DNA from: a virus
Taxonomy: Duplodnaviria > Caudoviricetes
Length of the DNA: 24,264 nucleotides
Virus record (IMG/VR): IMGVR_UViG_3300025803_000100
Location: 1-24,264 of that record
Direction: 5' to 3' (one strand)
The notes below the pieces were generated by a model. That model searched no databases, was not told where the DNA came from, and saw only the letters and a program-made list of their open reading frames with translations. The first letter of the stretch is position 1. Every line of letters begins with the position of its first letter. A program made the translations under genes and the position numbers. Shown here piece after piece: positions 5,269 to 17,095 of the stretch.

Positions 5269-8200
5269 GTGATAACCGCCGCCCTCGGCATCGACCCTTC
5301 CGGGACCCAGTCGTCTACCCAGACGTCTACGTCCACATCTGTACCCAGCCTCCTCGACTGGGCCAACGGGGCTACCACTAGCCCCCGACCCCAACAGGTG
5401 ACCCCAGCCCCAGCCACAACATCGAGCGTTCCTAGCTTGCTTGAATGGTCCGGGATTGCGCAGCCGACCACTAGCCAGCAGCAGCCGCAGCAGCCACAGC
5501 AGCCGGCTGCGTTCGCCACCGACAACGTCGACACGGACCGCGGCATGCGGGTAATCGAGTGGGTCATTGAGCATCAAGCTGTCCCGCTCGGAGACGACGA
5601 CCAGCAACTCCGAGACATGGTGGGCACTATGGCCCGCCTGTACTTCGGAGGCGACGAGGAAACTAAATCCTCCGTAGAAGAAGTCATGATCGCAGTGTCC
5701 GATGTTGTGCCCAAAGAAATGTGGGCACAGTACGGGCTAGAAAAGTTCACAGACACAGAATCCGGGTTCGATAACTTCGGTGGCCGGTTCTTAGACAACG
5801 CCAAAGGACTCGGCGGCACTATCACCAACTGGGGGTTCGGAGATAACCCGTTCGGTAAATACGTGGGGCAACCGCTAGCTACCGGCCTGTCTCACATGCA
5901 GCAGACCGCACTTATGACGGTGTCCGCTGTACGCAACGGCCGCATCGGTGACGCCGCAATGATTCTTGCTGAGGCTGTAGCGGAGCCGGCTACCCTCGGG
6001 AAGATCGACACGGACGGCGGGGCCGTCGACCGGGAACTGGCCCGGTGGGACATCGACTCGAACGGGTGGATGGACTTTGCCGAAGCGCTCGGCTACAACC
6101 CTAACTCGTCCGGGCGAGGCGGCTGGGTTGGCGGGTTCATCTTTGAGCTAGCAAACTTTGTGGGCGGCGAACTGTTAGACCCGCTCAACTATTTGACCCT
6201 CGGTGGTGCTTCCGCTAAGGGCGGGCTGGACATGGTGGAAGAAATGTACGGCACGGGCGCCCGTCTGGTCGTGGAACGAGAAGGTCTAGATGCGGTACTC
6301 AGCGCCAGCGAACAGGCCGCGTTGCAGAGTAGGCTCACGAAATCTTTAGAAATAGCGTTCGGGGAGGAGGGTCGTAGACGCACCGCCTACGAGGTTCTGC
6401 GCCGTCTGGACCCGAGCGACGTAGCAGACAAACGAGTTCGGGAAGCTATTTCTTCTATCCAATCCGGGCGAGGCGTTCACGTTGCCGGCGTTCGGCTCCC
6501 CGGGTCGGAGGCTGTGCAGCAATTCCCGGGCCGCCAAAAGGTAGAGTACGCTGGCCGGGCAGACGAGATCGCCCGACGCAAACTATTGACTCCCGACCCG
6601 ACCGATATTCGCCCGATCGACCAGCAGTTCGGTAAGCGAATAAACATTCTGGACGGCACGTACATCGACGGGGACGACCTGCGGGCGCTGGTAGATTCCC
6701 CGACGGAGTTGACTCCGGCAGCGGAAACAGCAGCAGCGGCCCGCTACGAGTTCGGGGTGACCACCCACAGCGGCGACCCGATGGGCACCGGCCGGTTCAC
6801 GTTGTACGACGACGGCACTGCGATCATTGACGACGTCACCCCTTCCGACCCCGCAGGGTCCCTTGTAGATGTCAACAGTCGCCTACTGGACGACGTGATC
6901 CCTACGTTGGAAAACTCCGGGTTCCACACTATCCGGGTTCGGGCAGACGGAGATCCGTGGTCTTGGACCGACAAGGGTTTTGTGCTGGACACGGCACGCA
7001 CTAGCGAGGTGATGGAGTGGTTGGATCATTTGGATGCCCGGCTGGGCCAGATTCTTTCTGATGAAGGCACAGCGTCAGCGGCAGGCAAAGCGCTCGGCGG
7101 CGGGTCGGACCGGTTCGGGTATTACGCTGCGGTTCGTGACCTGCGGGAACGGGTCCTTGCTGCTCGGGACAACCCGAACGCAGCTAACTTGTTTGCCATA
7201 GCGGACCCTACTGGGCCTAACTGGAAAGCTATTGGGGAACTCATCGACGGCGATTGGGGTGTTGTTCCCATGATGCGGGGCATCACTAACGTCCCCGGCA
7301 ACGGGCACATTGCACGTATCGTATCTCCGGGGTTGGCGCAGCGCATCAGGCAGTCCCCTACGGGGCAGTTCTTTGGGGACCGCCTCACGCCGAGGGCTGG
7401 GGTTCGCCGCACGTCCGGCACTCAAACCGCCGAGGGCTTGTACCGTTCGCAGCAGCGAGCAAAGTTTGCTGCCGAGAACCAGTTGGATGACAACATCGGT
7501 GCCATGACTAAACTGAAACGTCAGGCTCAGGCCGAGTTTGCGGATGACCCTACTGTTGTTGATGACATTGTTCGGGAAGCGTTGGAGAAGACGGATGAGC
7601 CCGGCAACATTTACGGCCCGGTCGGAGATCCGCTCGACGGCACAGCGGTTTTAGCTAAGCTAGACCACGAGGACTTGTTGACTGCGGAACTTCAGGCGCT
7701 GCGCAGCGAAGGCAAGTTTGCGACCGCAGAGTATTTGGAGTTGATGCACGATCTGCGTAAGGCGGGAGATGACGCTGCGGTCAAGGCCGGGCTTCCTGAG
7801 GATTTCTTGCGGGAGGGGTATTTCCCTCGGATCACTACGCAGGAGGGCGAGAAGGCGATCAAAGAGAACGCTCATTTGATGGAGAAGTTTGGGCTGGACC
7901 CGAACAGTAAAGTGTCGTTGCATGAGCAGATGCATCAGAAACGCCGTACGTTCATGCCGGAGGCTACTATTGAAGAAGCCAACGACGCGGCGCGCATCAT
8001 GTTCGATTTGGAAGATGGCGTGAACCTGTTTGTAGAGGACCCGCTGGTGGCGTTTGCTCTGCGATCGAAGTCGTCGTTTACGGCGGCAGCGCAGATGGAC
8101 ATGCTGGACGAGCTAGTTGGACTTACGGACGACACCGGCCGCACGGTGGCTGCGTGGGGCGAAGGGGCCGTCGGGTACAACGAGAAGGCGCTACGTCAAC

Positions 8201-10764
8201 TACAACTGCGCCGATCCGAGGCGGGCTTTCGCACGGTGAAAGTGGACACCCCCCGAGGGCCGCTGTACACCACCCCGGAGATTGCGAAAGAAATCGACAA
8301 CATCCGCAAGGTGATGTTCAACGACGAAACGTTGGAGCACTTCCAAGCGTTTCTTGATCGGTGGTCGCAAATCTGGGGCACCTATGCCACGGTTCCGTTG
8401 GCCGACGGTTTCGGGTTCCACATGCGAAACGCATACGGCAACGTGATGCTGAACCTGACCGCAGGGGTAACGAGCCCTGCGGTGTACTGGCACGCCGCCC
8501 GCCTTCAGAACGCCAGCGGAAAGGCACGCCGCCGCCTCGGTGCAGTGTCCGGAACCGGCGACCGCAACGCAGTGTTTGCGGGCATGTCGTTTGACGACAT
8601 CGTCAAGAGCGACCACCTTGGGTTGTCTTCCCGAGATCAGGCATTGCTGATCGGTGCCCGAGATCGGGGAATTATCGGCAACGGGTTCTTCCAAGACCTT
8701 GCCCCCGACGAGCTAGACAACGTGTACCGTGCCATCCCTAAAGGCAAGGTCGGTAAGGGTTTGCAGACGACGACCGACAAAGCGATAGACAATAGGGTCG
8801 TGCGAACCGGACGTGCAGTCGGCACTTCGGTGGAAAACAACGCCCGACTCGCTCACTACATTGACCGGATCAACAAGGGTTTCTCAGCGGAAGAAGCCGC
8901 TGCGTCTGTGCGCCGCTACCTGTTCGACTACGGGGACCTGACCCCGTTCGAGCGTGCCCGCCTGCGGTCTATTTCCCGGTTCTACACGTTCATGCGTAAG
9001 AACACGGCGCTACAGACGTGGGCTATTATGCACAACCCGGCCGGCGTGGCACGTCAGCTTCGTGCTCACCGGTCGCTGGTTCCGGTTGACGACGAGGACG
9101 GCGGATTGAACAGTCTGATCCCGGACTGGGCTAAAGAGCAGGGAACGATTGGTACGGCGCTGATGGGCGGCGTTGCGATGGCCCCAGAGTCCGTGTTCAA
9201 CGCAGCCTTTGACCCGTACAACGCTGCGTGGAAACTCATAGACCAGATCCCCGGACTAAAAGAGATTCTCCCCGGCGAAACAGAAGGCAAAGACTCAGCG
9301 GCTGCGCTTCTTGGGCTGCTGGCCGGCGGCCCGATGTCTATGGTTGACTTCCTCTTCGAGGTCCGATCACAAGAAACTTGGTACGGCAAAGACATTTCAG
9401 ACCGGGGCCTCGAAGGCGACTTGATGAGGTTCGCTGACACTATCATGCCTCTGTGGGGGCCGGTGGATCGGATGATCTCTGAACTGTCCGGAGGCGCTCT
9501 CGAAGGAAGCAGCGGCCTGTTCGGCACCGGACTCGGAAACAACCCAACCCCCATGCAGAAAGATATGTCGCTTGGGGTTGCTCTCATCAAAAACCTCCTC
9601 GGCTGGAACGCTGTGCCGCTAGGCGACGCCGCTCAACGTTCCGTGATCTACAGCATGTCCGCAGAACTAGACACCCTGATTGAGGAGGCCAAACGCCGAG
9701 GCGTTGACATTGGAACACAGCAGGACCTGCGACATCTAGGAATCATCCCGGAACTCCCAGACATTGCAGAAGACATCGGCGTGTCCGGTTCCCGAGCAGA
9801 CTCGTACATCCTGCGGGACCGTTTGGAAGCCGCAGGCATCGACCCGATGACCGACGCCAACTATCTCGAACTGCTGGAACGGGAACGCCGCCTCGGGTTT
9901 GAGATCATCACCCGAGCTGACGTAGAGAACTGGTCCGAACAGGCCGGGCTGGACCCCGAACAAACGTTGGAACTCGTCGAGGATCTGGAAGGCCGATACA
10001 CGAGCCGAGAAACCCGAGGAGATCAGTACGCTGTGGAGATGGGATGGACCCGCCCAGACAAGGCCGGCGGCGACCCGCACGGCATTGTAGATTTCCGCAC
10101 CAAAGCACACTACAACGCTGCTAACCCAGACGACCCGTTCCTTGATTCCGACGGAAATGTAATCACGCTGGATGCGTGGCGTCAATGGGTGGAAGACAAG
10201 GGTGTCCGATACTTCGAGAAGCCAGACGCAGACGGCAACAGTTACAGTACTAGGTCCAGCAGGGCCGCCGACCTATCCGTGTCCGTGGGGCTCGTCAACG
10301 AAGACGGCGACCCGCTGTCTAACAATCTGACGAAAGCGTACTACAACTCAAAGAACCCGGACGACGTGTTCGTTGACCGAGAAGGCAACACGATCACGTA
10401 CCGGGACGTTGAGACTGTGTGGCCGGGATCTCGGCTGTCAGACGTGCGGTCGTGGGCGTTGTCCGTCGGGTACCAAATCAACCCGGCTGCGACGTCGCTT
10501 CCTATGGACGTGCGCAGGGCGTACAACGACGCCCACCCGAACTCCCCGTACTTCACCCCAAGGGAATGGGTGCAGGCCGGGCATAACCCGCTGCAAGGCG
10601 TGTACCAGTGGTGGGTGGACGGCACCGTCTACGAGTATTGGCCGGACGGAATGTCCGAAGATAACTGGTGGATAGCTGACTTGCCGTCGACCGCATCCGG
10701 TAGTTCCTCGCTGCTGGACTCCGGCAACAAAACGTCCCTGTCGGACGCGCTGTTCGGAAACTGA
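5269..10764 (+). CDS. Giant internal virion / DNA ejection protein (large polyvalent-type), 1831 aa
   Basis: GELLDPLNYLTLGG, GYFPRI, GFHMRN..GN and FDYGDLTPFER...FYTFMRKN segments resemble conserved blocks of large podoviral core proteins. It is the last gene of the + strand block. The GTG start is uncertain. Confidence 0.7.
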   Translation: MITAALGIDPSGTQSSTQTSTSTSVPSLLDWANGATTSPRPQQVTPAPATTSSVPSLLEWSGIAQPTTSQQQPQQPQQPAAFATDNVDTDRGMRVIEWVIEHQAVPLGDDDQQLRDMVGTMARLYFGGDEETKSSVEEVMIAVSDVVPKEMWAQYGLEKFTDTESGFDNFGGRFLDNAKGLGGTITNWGFGDNPFGKYVGQPLATGLSHMQQTALMTVSAVRNGRIGDAAMILAEAVAEPATLGKIDTDGGAVDRELARWDIDSNGWMDFAEALGYNPNSSGRGGWVGGFIFELANFVGGELLDPLNYLTLGGASAKGGLDMVEEMYGTGARLVVEREGLDAVLSASEQAALQSRLTKSLEIAFGEEGRRRTAYEVLRRLDPSDVADKRVREAISSIQSGRGVHVAGVRLPGSEAVQQFPGRQKVEYAGRADEIARRKLLTPDPTDIRPIDQQFGKRINILDGTYIDGDDLRALVDSPTELTPAAETAAAARYEFGVTTHSGDPMGTGRFTLYDDGTAIIDDVTPSDPAGSLVDVNSRLLDDVIPTLENSGFHTIRVRADGDPWSWTDKGFVLDTARTSEVMEWLDHLDARLGQILSDEGTASAAGKALGGGSDRFGYYAAVRDLRERVLAARDNPNAANLFAIADPTGPNWKAIGELIDGDWGVVPMMRGITNVPGNGHIARIVSPGLAQRIRQSPTGQFFGDRLTPRAGVRRTSGTQTAEGLYRSQQRAKFAAENQLDDNIGAMTKLKRQAQAEFADDPTVVDDIVREALEKTDEPGNIYGPVGDPLDGTAVLAKLDHEDLLTAELQALRSEGKFATAEYLELMHDLRKAGDDAAVKAGLPEDFLREGYFPRITTQEGEKAIKENAHLMEKFGLDPNSKVSLHEQMHQKRRTFMPEATIEEANDAARIMFDLEDGVNLFVEDPLVAFALRSKSSFTAAAQMDMLDELVGLTDDTGRTVAAWGEGAVGYNEKALRQLQLRRSEAGFRTVKVDTPRGPLYTTPEIAKEIDNIRKVMFNDETLEHFQAFLDRWSQIWGTYATVPLADGFGFHMRNAYGNVMLNLTAGVTSPAVYWHAARLQNASGKARRRLGAVSGTGDRNAVFAGMSFDDIVKSDHLGLSSRDQALLIGARDRGIIGNGFFQDLAPDELDNVYRAIPKGKVGKGLQTTTDKAIDNRVVRTGRAVGTSVENNARLAHYIDRINKGFSAEEAAASVRRYLFDYGDLTPFERARLRSISRFYTFMRKNTALQTWAIMHNPAGVARQLRAHRSLVPVDDEDGGLNSLIPDWAKEQGTIGTALMGGVAMAPESVFNAAFDPYNAAWKLIDQIPGLKEILPGETEGKDSAAALLGLLAGGPMSMVDFLFEVRSQETWYGKDISDRGLEGDLMRFADTIMPLWGPVDRMISELSGGALEGSSGLFGTGLGNNPTPMQKDMSLGVALIKNLLGWNAVPLGDAAQRSVIYSMSAELDTLIEEAKRRGVDIGTQQDLRHLGIIPELPDIAEDIGVSGSRADSYILRDRLEAAGIDPMTDANYLELLERERRLGFEIITRADVENWSEQAGLDPEQTLELVEDLEGRYTSRETRGDQYAVEMGWTRPDKAGGDPHGIVDFRTKAHYNAANPDDPFLDSDGNVITLDAWRQWVEDKGVRYFEKPDADGNSYSTRSSRAADLSVSVGLVNEDGDPLSNNLTKAYYNSKNPDDVFVDREGNTITYRDVETVWPGSRLSDVRSWALSVGYQINPAATSLPMDVRRAYNDAHPNSPYFTPREWVQAGHNPLQGVYQWWVDGTVYEYWPDGMSEDNWWIADLPSTASGSSSLLDSGNKTSLSDALFGN

Positions 10765-13347: not shown

Positions 13348-15834
13348 TCATTCTCCTTCGTTGTCAGGGAACACTTTGCAGGCGGGCATCGCCCATACAC
13401 GCTTGTACTGCCCGCCGAACGGCGGGGATTTACGGGTCTGCTCTGCGCCGTACTCGGCTACCAGCAGGTTACTGATCGTCCGTCCGTTGTTGCCGGGCAA
13501 CACGAACGCCCCCGATCTGCGAACGTCCGCCACGAACCCGGACACCTGCACATACAACATACCGTCCTCGATCCACACGTTCTCCGAAGCGAACCGGTCA
13601 CCCAACGCCCACTCCAACGCATCCAACGTCGGGTTCGTGGACGTTGCCGCCTCCACGGTGCCCACGACACCAGACCAGTCGGGGGCGTCCAAACCAGCAG
13701 CGCCTCGCATAGCGAGGAAATCGTTGAGGATACGCCACCCGAGATCCAACACCCCGAGGTTGTACCGGACACGATCCGGCAGGTCCGCCGGCCCCGACGG
13801 AGTGACCTTGACCGAGCCATCTTCCTGAATCGATCGGCACACGAAAGACAAGAACGAATACGCCAGCGTGCCGTCCTCGCCGTCCTGCACGAACCGCAAC
13901 GCCCGCTCATGCCGAGACTCACGCACCTTCGGACGCACCACGTCCACCAGAATCATACGCTCAGCGTGCGACGTTTCCGTAATCGACTGCTCGCCGGCAA
14001 TAACGATCGGCGCTTCGGTACGAATGTAAGCGATCTCGTTCCACCGGTCACCGCCCATAGACTTCGCTGACGGGTTCCCGTCGTAGGCGTCACGAGCCAA
14101 CTGCTCCAACCGCTCCAACGTAGCGGTCCGAGCACCCGGACGGTACTCGTCAAACACGACAGGGAACCCGTTGGTGGCGTTCACCAACGACTCAACAGCG
14201 TACGGCGTCGACGACGTCAACGTCTGAAAGATGTGCGACCCAGTCAGCACAGGAATGATGGCTTGGGCGGTTGTGGTCTTTCCGGACCCAGACACACCGG
14301 TGATGTTCAACACCGGGAACTGGGGGAGGAGTGACCGGAAGGGGGCGACCGCCGCCCAAGCCAGAATGGGATCAACCACTTTGCGTTCGTTCATTTCACG
14401 CATCGCATAGATGAGGCGATGATCGCCTCGGCCTTCGGTGACACGAATGTCTAGGTTCACGATCGAAGCGCCCGGCACATACCGGACCGGCGAATCCCCA
14501 ATCGACCCGCCATCCCACACGATATGCCCGTCGTGATACCCGGCAATATCGGACGCCGACTCCTGCGGCACGAACATGGACCGGGCCTTCAACCGAGACG
14601 CCAACACCGCAACGTCCGTGTCGCTCCCCGACCACACCAGCCCGTGACGGTGCGCCCACTTACGAAACTGATTCTTCGAGCCGATGTCACCGGCGACCAG
14701 CAACAGATCCCGAGCCCCGTCCGTCACCTCATACGACATGCCGCCGCTCTGATCAATCATGACCCGCACTGGATCAATCACGAAATCCGACAACTCCATA
14801 CCCGGGTCGCCGTTGTTAGACACCCGACGATACCGGCCGCCGATCTCCACGATCCCCCGCATCTCCGCCTCGTACCGGCGGGCACGTGCCAGCAGACCGG
14901 GGATGTCCGCCACCGACGACAAGTCCCGACCCTCCGGGACCGGAACAATAAACACCTCGTTGTCTTCTCGCAGGTAATCGGCCCACAAGGTAGATGCGTC
15001 CCGGCCCGCCTCATCGCCATCGAGCGCAATGTACACTCGGCGTCCAGCGAGCCGGGACTGCATCTTCTCAGGGCGAGTACCGGCCCCCGACGGTAGCCCC
15101 AAGAACACGTACTCTCGGGTGGCGCCGGTACCTGACCAGACGTCTGGTTCTCCCTCACATACTACCACAGGACGTTCGCCGTCATCCAGCCATTCCCCGT
15201 AGAACACGGTCCACATGCCACGGGTACCCGCCGGCGACATGAACTTCTCACCGGGCCGCCGATACTTGTATGCAACAAACTCGCCGTCCGCATCGAAGAA
15301 CGGCGCCTTCACCTCGCCGCCAACGAACGACACACGGAACGTGTCACGCAGCAGATCGGCAGGCAACGCAGACACTGCGTCGTCTCGTTCCCGCATCCAC
15401 AACTCCAACTCGCCCGGGTCCTCCTGCGCCGCCCACTCCGCCATCTCAGCACGGGCAGCGTCCACATCAAACGACCCCACCGACGGCAACGGTTCCGGGG
15501 CAACCCAATCGCCCTCCAAGAACCGGACGTACAGGGTGCGAGCCATCGCAAGCTGATCAGCGAACGACTCACGACTCGAGTCCAGCATGCCGATCAGGTC
15601 CAGCATATCGCCGCCCTCCGACCGGGCCATGTCCCGCCACCGATCCACGACACCGTCATCGTCGGAGGCGTAGCAGGCAAGGCTCGGGTTGGAGTCCTGC
15701 CGCCACGGCGTCAGATACATGAGGTCCCTGCCGCTGCGATCTACCGGCTCATGCCCGGCAGCGTACAGAACGTACGTCACCGGCATCCGGGCTTTGATCT
15801 CCTCGATAGTAGCGAACTCCGGGAATGTGCTCAT
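13348..15834 (-). CDS. Primase-helicase fusion (TOPRIM + P-loop NTPase, DUF927-like)
   Basis: TOPRIM motifs VVVCEGEPD and IALDGDEAG, Walker A GVSGSGKT and Walker B VVFDE. The N-terminus is a Cys-less variant of the CHC2 finger (TPWRQDSNPS...WRD...GGD). Confidence 0.85.
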   Translation of the reverse strand: MSTFPEFATIEEIKARMPVTYVLYAAGHEPVDRSGRDLMYLTPWRQDSNPSLACYASDDDGVVDRWRDMARSEGGDMLDLIGMLDSSRESFADQLAMARTLYVRFLEGDWVAPEPLPSVGSFDVDAARAEMAEWAAQEDPGELELWMRERDDAVSALPADLLRDTFRVSFVGGEVKAPFFDADGEFVAYKYRRPGEKFMSPAGTRGMWTVFYGEWLDDGERPVVVCEGEPDVWSGTGATREYVFLGLPSGAGTRPEKMQSRLAGRRVYIALDGDEAGRDASTLWADYLREDNEVFIVPVPEGRDLSSVADIPGLLARARRYEAEMRGIVEIGGRYRRVSNNGDPGMELSDFVIDPVRVMIDQSGGMSYEVTDGARDLLLVAGDIGSKNQFRKWAHRHGLVWSGSDTDVAVLASRLKARSMFVPQESASDIAGYHDGHIVWDGGSIGDSPVRYVPGASIVNLDIRVTEGRGDHRLIYAMREMNERKVVDPILAWAAVAPFRSLLPQFPVLNITGVSGSGKTTTAQAIIPVLTGSHIFQTLTSSTPYAVESLVNATNGFPVVFDEYRPGARTATLERLEQLARDAYDGNPSAKSMGGDRWNEIAYIRTEAPIVIAGEQSITETSHAERMILVDVVRPKVRESRHERALRFVQDGEDGTLAYSFLSFVCRSIQEDGSVKVTPSGPADLPDRVRYNLGVLDLGWRILNDFLAMRGAAGLDAPDWSGVVGTVEAATSTNPTLDALEWALGDRFASENVWIEDGMLYVQVSGFVADVRRSGAFVLPGNNGRTISNLLVAEYGAEQTRKSPPFGGQYKRVWAMPACKVFPDNEGE

Positions 15835-16379
15835 CGGTTCTCCTCAATAGTCTTCACAGCAAAGTAAACAGCAGCGCAGATCACACCAGCGATCAGCCCA
15901 CCGAGGTGCCCTTCCCAAGAAACACCGTCCCGAGGCACCAACCCGGACACGGCTATAGCGCCGCAAACCAGCAGCGACAACGACTTCGAGATCCAGTATT
16001 CGTTCGGGAACGTCAGCACCGTAGCCACGATGTACGCACCGAGCAGAGCGAACACGACCCCCGACGCCCCGATCACTGGGGTGCCGTGATCTCCGATCGC
16101 CCACAGCAGCCCGCCGCCGGCGACCACGCCCGCCGTCAACACCGCACCCAGATAGGCGGCGCCTCGGGTAGCGGCGATCCCTCCGAGGATACCAACCCCC
16201 ACGATGTTGCCTGCCAGATGCGCCTGATCTGCGTGCAGAAACGCACCAGTCACCGCACCGGGCAAACGGTCCACGTCCCGAGGCCACACCGCATGCGCCA
16301 GCCCGGGGCCTGCGTTCGCATCGATTACGTACAATGCGGCAATGTATGCGAGCAGCAGAACCGCTGCGGATTTAGTCAT
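15831..16379 (-). CDS. Rhomboid-family intramembrane serine protease, 182 aa
   Basis: FLHADQAHLAGN (HxxxxHxxxN), catalytic GASG and SWEGHLGGLIAG (catalytic His, GxxxG), with about 6 TM helices. The start is reassigned to ATG 16379 (MTKSAAV), with SD GAGGAG at 16385-16390. Confidence 0.92.
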   Translation of the reverse strand: MTKSAAVLLLAYIAALYVIDANAGPGLAHAVWPRDVDRLPGAVTGAFLHADQAHLAGNIVGVGILGGIAATRGAAYLGAVLTAGVVAGGGLLWAIGDHGTPVIGASGVVFALLGAYIVATVLTFPNEYWISKSLSLLVCGAIAVSGLVPRDGVSWEGHLGGLIAGVICAAVYFAVKTIEENR

Positions 16380-16399
16380 CAGAACTCCTCTGAACTGAT

Positions 16400-16476
16400 T
16401 AGTGGACGTGCCGGGGATCGAACCCGGGTACCCGCACCTGCCCGTGGCCGGTGCAGCGAAGCCAACCTTCACGCCC
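16400..16476 (-). ncRNA. tmRNA-like tRNA mimic: isolated tRNA-like domain with alanine identity, no anticodon loop, no MLD
   Basis: GGGCGUG AAGGUUGGCUUCG CUGCACC G GCC ACG GGC A GGUGCGG GUAC CCGGG UUCGAUC CCCGG CACGUCC A CUA. It has a 7-bp acceptor stem with G3-U70, discriminator A, a canonical T arm and a 13-nt stemless D region. Confidence 0.8.
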
Positions 16477-16480
16477 GAAA

Positions 16481-16568
16481 CCTGCGGGGCTCCAAGCCCA
16501 CCCCGCAGGGATACTCATTGCCGGTGGGGGGAGGAGGGGTGACGCCCCTGCTTGGACCCCCGGCAATG
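16481..16568 (-). ncRNA. Structured RNA: two hairpins with complementary loops (kissing loop / pseudoknot)
   Basis: P1 CAUUGCCGG/CCGGCAAUG, P2 AGGGG/CCCCU and P3 CCUGCGGGG/CCCCGCAGG. The internal-loop UCCAAGC is complementary to the P3-loop GCUUGGA. Confidence 0.55.
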
Positions 16569-16570
16569 GA

Positions 16571-17095
16571 TCAGATGGCCCAAGTGTCGCCGGTGTCGAG
16601 ATCCTTCTCGAACGACTCGGCGGCGGTCGGGGCCGGAGCGGGGGCAGGAGCCGGGGAAGGCACAGCCTTCAGACCGGCGTCGCCGCCCTGCTTCTTGCCG
16701 AGGTAGCAGTTCGTCCACTGGCCGTCCTTCGACAGCTTCACCTCGATCGACCACACCTGCCCGACGGTCGTCTGAACCGCAGCCTGCGGGTCGGCGTTGA
16801 GCATCGCACCGGTCACACCGAGCGAGGCGCAGTCACGGGCAGCGAACCCGGCGGCCTTCTCGGAGAACGTGGCGTTCAGCCAGATGGTACCGCCCGACAT
16901 GTCTTCGCCGTCGGCGCTGACGCTGCCGTCCTGAGCGACGAACATGAACCCGGCCTTCGGGGCTCCCGCCTTCGACTCACCGAAGTTAGCGGACTTGATC
17001 TCGGCAATGTACTTGCCGGGTGCAAGGTCGATGGACGGGCCGAAACCCTCCGACACTGCCTCTTGGAAGATGGACTCAAAGTTGAAACTGGACAT
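16571..17095 (-). CDS. Single-stranded DNA-binding protein (DUF669-like)
   Basis: LAPGKYIAEIKSA...SKAG pattern, a PAPAPAP linker and an acidic/aromatic tail (DLDTGDTWAI). It lies downstream of the Sak4-like ATPase. Confidence 0.75.
   Translation of the reverse strand: MSSFNFESIFQEAVSEGFGPSIDLAPGKYIAEIKSANFGESKAGAPKAGFMFVAQDGSVSADGEDMSGGTIWLNATFSEKAAGFAARDCASLGVTGAMLNADPQAAVQTTVGQVWSIEVKLSKDGQWTNCYLGKKQGGDAGLKAVPSPAPAPAPAPTAAESFEKDLDTGDTWAI

Follow-up and report, generated by a model that had tools for sequence, protein, structure and literature searches.

A phage-encoded tmRNA-like RNA that lacks a message domain and combines an altered SmpB junction with a predicted pseudoknotted leader

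Downstream of a phage gene of unassigned family lies an element of 77 nt that looks like the two ends of a tmRNA joined by a short hairpin. The locus therefore raises the question whether this is an RNA gene in its own right and, if so, what a phage would gain from a tRNA-like domain (TLD) carrying no message. The window, i.e. the whole stretch of 24,264 nt that was analysed, is a phage fragment with genes for DNA polymerase A, an SNF2 helicase, a PD-(D/E)XK nuclease, a Sak4-like ATPase and a primase as well as endolysin, adaptor and WhiB genes. The WhiB gene presumably points to an actinobacterial host; a search for WhiB homologues yielded no named host. The structural genes end with a 1831 aa ORF (5269-10764, plus strand) that has no match in Pfam or PHROG. 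The element is encoded by the phage, as indicated by the virus record and by the capsid and portal genes of G404, a close relative that is 94% complete and in which no integrase was found.

The element occupies 16400..16476 and is read from 16476 to 16400 on the minus strand, on which all features of the locus described below are located; the first-pass annotation gave no strand. The upstream gene (16571..17095), termed ssb in that annotation, has no Pfam or PHROG match. Directly downstream a rhomboid-domain gene (15831..16379) starts at ATG 16379, preceded by a strong Shine-Dalgarno sequence (SD), GAGGAG (16385..16390), 10 nt past the end of the RNA. The rhomboid-domain gene sits between the RNA and the primase gene in some relatives and is absent from others; in L006 and L008 it is missing at this place and the primase gene follows the RNA. 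In 3/3 rhomboid-carrying phages the RNA is traversed by a GTG frame that continues into the rhomboid gene. A coding 5' extension was rejected, as L006 and L133 interrupt this frame and the strong SD precedes ATG 16379. An attachment site for integration at the host ssrA gene was likewise rejected, as an integrase was found neither in the window nor in G404. A simple scan found no sigma-70 promoter and no terminator adjoining the RNA. Against annotated phages, blastn of the 1.3-kb region gave no match and blastn of the RNA alone only T-arm fragments. Relatives carrying a normal tRNA or a full-length tmRNA at this place, which had been named as a sign of a decayed copy, did not turn up: the close relatives found have the same short RNA, and a search for relatives without it reached four contigs, 4/4 of which carry it.

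All parts of the TLD that had been read from the letters alone are in place. According to the sequence and the Rfam alignment, the 5' strand of the acceptor stem (16470..16476, G3 at 16474) pairs 7/7, G3·U70 included, with a 3' strand that together with the discriminator A (16403) and a terminal CUA instead of CCA covers 16400..16410 (U70 at 16406). The stem is followed by a stemless D region of 13 nt (16457..16469), reaching from A8 to GG-C-UUCG, and by a hairpin of 25 nt (16432..16456) in place of helix 2 and the message domain. The GUAC linker (16428..16431) retains the AC of the tmRNA GAC linker with one base extra. It leads into a T arm with a 5-bp stem and a 7-nt loop (16411..16427). As read in the window, the replacement hairpin consists of 7 bp, a G·A mismatch, a 3-bp tip and a 3-nt loop. 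This earlier description holds for the window, but the third tip pair is not kept in relatives, hence the loop, which is variable, is better read as 5-7 nt.

At a relaxed threshold the Rfam tmRNA model RF00023 matches both ends of the element (E=5.5e-11, 30.9 bits, with a cut-off of 47 bits). The alignment spans model positions 1-374, whereby 326 model positions are replaced by 27 nt. ARAGORN at default and Rfam at the gathering threshold returned nothing in the window. The partial match to both tmRNA ends without a confident tRNA call, anticipated in the first-pass annotation, is thus what was obtained. Two real tRNA-Ala genes outscore the element on this model, reaching 41.7 and 36.8 bits in a separate search, so the Rfam match alone cannot separate a TLD from a tRNA. 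No mt-tmRNA model was listed among the Rfam matches, in which overlapping matches within one clan are hidden, and the check for YrlA found no Y RNA model among the 9 Rfam matches at E up to 10.

ARAGORN likewise made no confident canonical tRNA call: its relaxed cloverleaf score is 97.2 for the window RNA and 101.6 for two members of the subgroup of closely related RNAs described below, compared with 120-121 for real tRNA-Ala. A canonical tRNA-Arg(ACG) was rejected based on the low score of 97.2, an unconserved triplet and the absent D stem. Neither ARAGORN nor the Rfam alignment reveals a tag reading frame or a message domain in the window RNA. The folding energy by itself is unremarkable (z=-1.08); the minimum-energy fold has 4 bp within the D region, and the fold with an open D region is 1.2 kcal/mol less stable. 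The strict TLD pattern found 0 matches in 200 base shuffles of the window. The element is not a chance match.

Whether it is maintained by selection was addressed by comparison. The RNA is 0.95 identical to that of each of two relatives. Identities of the flanks are lower: 0.86 and 0.71 for the upstream gene, 0.67 and 0.57 for the leader, and 0.79 and 0.69 for the first 600 nt of the primase gene. An identity of 0.95 against 0.57-0.86 in the flanks indicates a discrete conserved unit. Moreover, near-identical copies of the RNA occur in unrelated flanks. With a subgroup pattern that placed no constraint on the acceptor stem, 16 metagenome stretches were found, the window itself among them; all loci of this pattern comprise 15 distinct leader-plus-RNA strings, and 15/15 show a 7/7 acceptor stem, G3·U70 and A73. 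Among the 10 distinct subgroup RNAs 99.3% of the cells of the arm and the T stem are paired, with 3/14 pairs changing on both sides, and for the replacement hairpin by itself 98.9% of cells are paired with 2/9 pairs changing on both sides. None of 500 shuffles reached the arm and T-stem pairing of the subgroup RNAs, a comparison in which kinship is uncontrolled. The arm loop is ACG, AUG or 6 nt long and thus holds no conserved anticodon; nor did the subgroup comparison find a conserved U33, purine 37 or D stem. The proposal of a message-less tmRNA TLD under selection is borne out by the match to both tmRNA ends, the conservation, the alanine identity and the shuffles. As judged from the sequences, the element is a real, selected RNA gene of the kind known from the Mycobacterium phage DS6A.

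The ssrA gene of DS6A (tmRNA Website tmID 11587, Phage__Mycobacterium.9, JN698994 28478-28560) is listed as 'TLD only' in PMC4131195. The claim that phage tmRNAs keep a tag frame is contradicted by this published example (PMC4131195, PMC11915505). The implied novelty does not hold either, as the class is published for DS6A and common in phages by our pattern search. Like the window RNA, that of DS6A is phage-borne and joins the tmRNA ends by a short hairpin. Both have G3·U70, a stemless D loop, a T arm and a CUA end, are missed by ARAGORN and stay below the Rfam cut-off. The DS6A RNA differs by its length of 83 nt, by retaining UCGA and by its longer arm, which contains an internal loop and ends in a CCGCACGCGG tip; this tip type is found in 30/103 family members among the matches listed. 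In contrast, the window RNA has 77 nt, no A after UCG, a GUAC linker, a plain arm and a pseudoknotted leader upstream.

Bacterial tmRNA (ssrA, RF00023) shares the acceptor stem, the alanine identity, the GG-x-UUCG loop, the AC of the linker and the T arm with the window RNA, which however lacks the message domain, the pseudoknots, the tag frame and the A after UCG and scores under the cut-off. Further tmRNAs without CDS are described for mitochondria and for plastids of Mallomonadaceae (PMC11915505). They resemble the window RNA in having a TLD without tag frame, but serve their own organelle, and the mitochondrial ones co-occur with a targeted SmpB (PMC11915505). The window RNA is viral instead, and its host presumably has a full tmRNA. 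With tRNA-Ala and degenerate phage tRNAs it has G3·U70, A73, the T arm and a similar length in common, yet no D stem, conserved anticodon, U33 or purine 37. Full tmRNAs of phages were surveyed with ARAGORN (PMC9004378), a program that misses the TLD-only form. We found no report of a widespread phage TLD-only family in the literature searched, largely papers outside subscription journals; the tmRNA database may hold further phage TLD-only entries.

Degenerate patterns returned 15 and at least 120 loci in viral contigs. A filter for 7/7 acceptor pairs left at least 105 distinct sequences and, after two tRNA-Glu genes were dropped, at least 103, DS6A among them. A small number of the 103 matches listed seem doubtful (e.g. 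L051, L062, L068, L086, L103 and L111). As patterns and filters imposed G3·U70, counts of this pair in the family are not used as evidence. An arm-based pattern not imposing it found 24 loci with 20 distinct sequences, and 20/20 keep G1-C72, G2-C71, G3·U70 and A73. Every copy from patterns that left G3·U70 and A73 free thus keeps the predicted alanine identity. Among the matches listed, the T-stem pair 49:65, likewise unimposed, is paired in 103/103 with all four Watson-Crick types, 83/102 copies reach 6 pairs or more in the outer arm helix versus a shuffled mean of 3.5, and CCA is encoded in 28/103 copies.

In 50 virus records, 22 of which are at least 90% complete, no SmpB was found (0/50). 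The 50 records yielded no full-length tmRNA either, nor any match to the tmRNA model longer than 85 nt. Hence any partner of the RNA must be that of the host. A tyrosine integrase is present in 8/50 records. In two (G440 8960-10074, G442 48234-49348) it is located ~0.55 kb from the TLD-only copy, which may double as an attachment site there. Another record, G451, has two matches of 81-82 nt to the tmRNA model (68294-68375 and 76863-76943), possibly two TLD-only copies. In 185,579 prokaryote genomes the strict pattern matched only 2 stretches. The first, L133, belongs to the subgroup and lies in a Gemmatimonadota MAG, flanked on either side by a 100-N gap. It probably represents a mis-binned phage contig, for which reason it was left out as host evidence. 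The second forms the 3' portion of a full-length tmRNA. Unannotated copies of the main type are found in the tRNA regions of three cultured Streptomyces phages, LuckySocke (L197 701-781), Shaeky (L198 ~710-791) and BRock (L199 ~692-773). GiJojo, pSt2308 and Alone3 were also matched in the search that found these copies.

What could the RNA do? In our best reading, which we regard as about evenly balanced between right and wrong, it would be a host-processed, alanine-charged competitor of host trans-translation. Host tRNA-processing enzymes would cut it out of the replication-gene transcript and, by what is known of tRNA and tmRNA biology, RNase P would make the 5' cut, the 3' end would be trimmed and CCA be added by the host. 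On the same grounds AlaRS would charge the RNA with alanine and EF-Tu would then bind it. The charged RNA and host tmRNA may compete for SmpB, EF-Tu and stalled ribosomes, resulting in fewer phage or host proteins tagged for degradation; for SmpB binding and for inhibition this follows the analogy with DS6A. The TLD anatomy, its conservation, the kept alanine identity and the lack of a tag frame and, in the searched records, of a phage SmpB are shown by the comparisons above. A DS6A-like RNA is reported to inhibit tmRNA strongly in its chargeable as well as its unchargeable form, possibly through titration of SmpB (PMC4131195, citing Mao 2009), and the inhibition of endogenous tmRNA in E. coli by this type is repeated in PMC11915505, again citing Mao 2009. 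Pure titration, however, leaves the retention of G3·U70 unexplained, as the DS6A-like RNA inhibits in both forms.

The strict conservation of G3·U70 and A73 would be explained if the RNA entered stalled ribosomes without adding a tag. The alanine-charged RNA together with SmpB and EF-Tu would take over the nascent chain and add one or several alanines. There would be no message to resume on, the chain would be released by another route and the fate of the stalled product would be changed, so that the phage would do more than block trans-translation. SmpB with a TLD fragment makes polyalanine without template in vitro (PMC3929946, citing Shimizu and Ueda 2006), and tmRNAs without CDS are maintained in mitochondria as well as in some plastids (PMC11915505). 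On the other hand, the one in vivo test of a DS6A-like RNA reportedly gave inhibition irrespective of chargeability (PMC4131195). Moreover, no release route is known, and the same SmpB binding is needed, which is doubtful for the subgroup. We consider such an entry unlikely.

The doubt about SmpB concerns both readings. A loop ending in UCGA and a GAC linker are motifs for SmpB binding. By cryo-EM the bases at the SmpB interface are A15, U17, C18, G19 and A334 (PMC8363625). The counterparts of U17, C18, G19 and A334 are present in the window RNA and invariant in 10/10 subgroup RNAs. The counterpart of A15 is C in the window and C or G in the subgroup; C is also found in some host tmRNAs. The A after UCG, replaced by C in the window RNA (UCGC), is found in 0/10 subgroup RNAs, in contrast to actinobacterial host tmRNAs, in which 36/36 readable 5' ends have UCGA (36/37 loci were readable; G003, G020, G050 and G241 were excluded from this reading and included in the linker tallies). 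A separate 5'-end pattern gave chance matches, 0/20 loci being tmRNAs. The linker G is less strict in hosts, with the GAC 3' end in 33/101 genomes and a non-G version in 7/401. In the subgroup the linker has 4-5 nt and is not GAC, the window RNA combining UCGC with GUAC. Among the matches listed, loss of the A and loss of the linker G co-occur (62/13/4/23; Fisher p=5e-10, uncorrected for kinship). The first-pass idea of an SmpB decoy gains from the DS6A precedent but is weaker for the subgroup, because of the missing A and the longer linker, which that annotation itself had flagged as deviations. SmpB binding, proposed by analogy with DS6A, is the weakest step of our best reading for the subgroup.

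This linked loss is also what would be expected if the junction was rebuilt (A lost, longer linker, an arm of ~9 bp, a loop of 6-7 nt) such that the RNA looks like a whole tRNA. It would then act independently of SmpB by soaking up tRNA-cutting defence enzymes, AlaRS or EF-Tu. The relaxed ARAGORN cloverleaf scores of the window RNA and of the two subgroup members fit such a shape. The loop triplet is unconserved though, which is odd for a decoy of anticodon nucleases, and the SmpB-contacting GG-x-UUCG and AC bases are invariant in the subgroup. We therefore hold this kind of mimicry to be improbable.

Another potential role is suggested by the leader. The stretch from the upstream stop codon to the RNA holds two hairpins. 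Hairpin 1 (16516..16568) has an internal loop with the 5' side of a predicted pseudoknot (16556-16550) and contains a C-rich CCUCC strand (16537-16529); hairpin 2 (16481..16509) exposes the complementary bases in its loop (16497-16491). In 6/6 rows, which represent only about three lineages, the predicted 7-bp pseudoknot has 7/7 pairs, 3 of them with changes on both sides. No Rfam family fits the leader (16481-16568). A leader pattern found 10/188 loci, close relatives only, and is too strict for the window's own version. The pseudoknotted leader is undescribed. That it controls processing or downstream translation via the CCUCC strand is a guess. Upstream of the RNA in L024, L120, L158, L160 and L168 a second shared motif is found, a GAGA-capped hairpin with GAAACACCC, in four of these five loci followed by a terminator-like hairpin; it has no Rfam match in L120.

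Hence the RNA could mainly be a processing signal in cis: RNase P and a 3' nuclease would split the replication operon at this place and define the 5' end of the mRNA that follows, possibly under control of the pseudoknotted leader, the structure of which is conserved. An SD and an ORF follow within 60 nt in 5/10 subgroup RNAs and, among the matches listed, downstream in 19/97 family members with enough flank. L133 (1014-4690) and L160 (109-2950) harbour 7 and 5 further intergenic repeats of a tRNA top half before short genes, consisting of a stem of ~5 bp, an 11-nt linker, a 7-bp T stem, a T loop and an ACGAT tail. They share the 3' tail of the RNA, and the arrays are possible RNase P/Z punctuation. 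Processing however needs neither G3·U70 nor GG-x-UUCG, yet both are kept. Moreover, 61/97 family members with enough flank, among the matches listed, show neither a tRNA in the vicinity nor an SD with ORF downstream of the RNA, and in L024 the next gene is convergent. As the main function we deem this quite improbable; cis processing is likely a side role.

Finally, that the TLD is non-functional, be it a decayed tRNA, an attachment site or a coding extension of the rhomboid gene, is largely refuted already and very improbable: tRNA-Ala does score on the same Rfam model, some records of the family have an integrase, in two cases close to the RNA, and the GTG frame exists, but conserved anticodon, U33 and D stem are absent, the RNA is more conserved than its flanks, and both tmRNA ends are present, of which an attachment site needs one.

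Beyond the competitor of trans-translation that we prefer, a more far-reaching scenario is conceivable, though we would not expect it to be right. Phages would widely use alanine-charged, message-less tmRNA heads as active tools of translation. These would enter stalled host ribosomes, where alanine tails made without a template would take the place of the tmRNA tag. The SmpB junction of the subgroup would have been rebuilt for a different partner or none, and the RNA would be set free from a leader controlled by the pseudoknot.

The class as such is already known from DS6A, and what seems particular to the RNA described here is the remodelled SmpB junction together with the pseudoknotted leader. 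DS6A is the one published phage example in the literature searched, yet viral and metagenome data hold at least 103 distinct copies. The subgroup represents a natural test of the rules of SmpB binding, having lost a base that is kept in 36/36 host tmRNAs. As copies are present in cultured Streptomyces phages, whether and why phages would interfere with trans-translation is directly testable.
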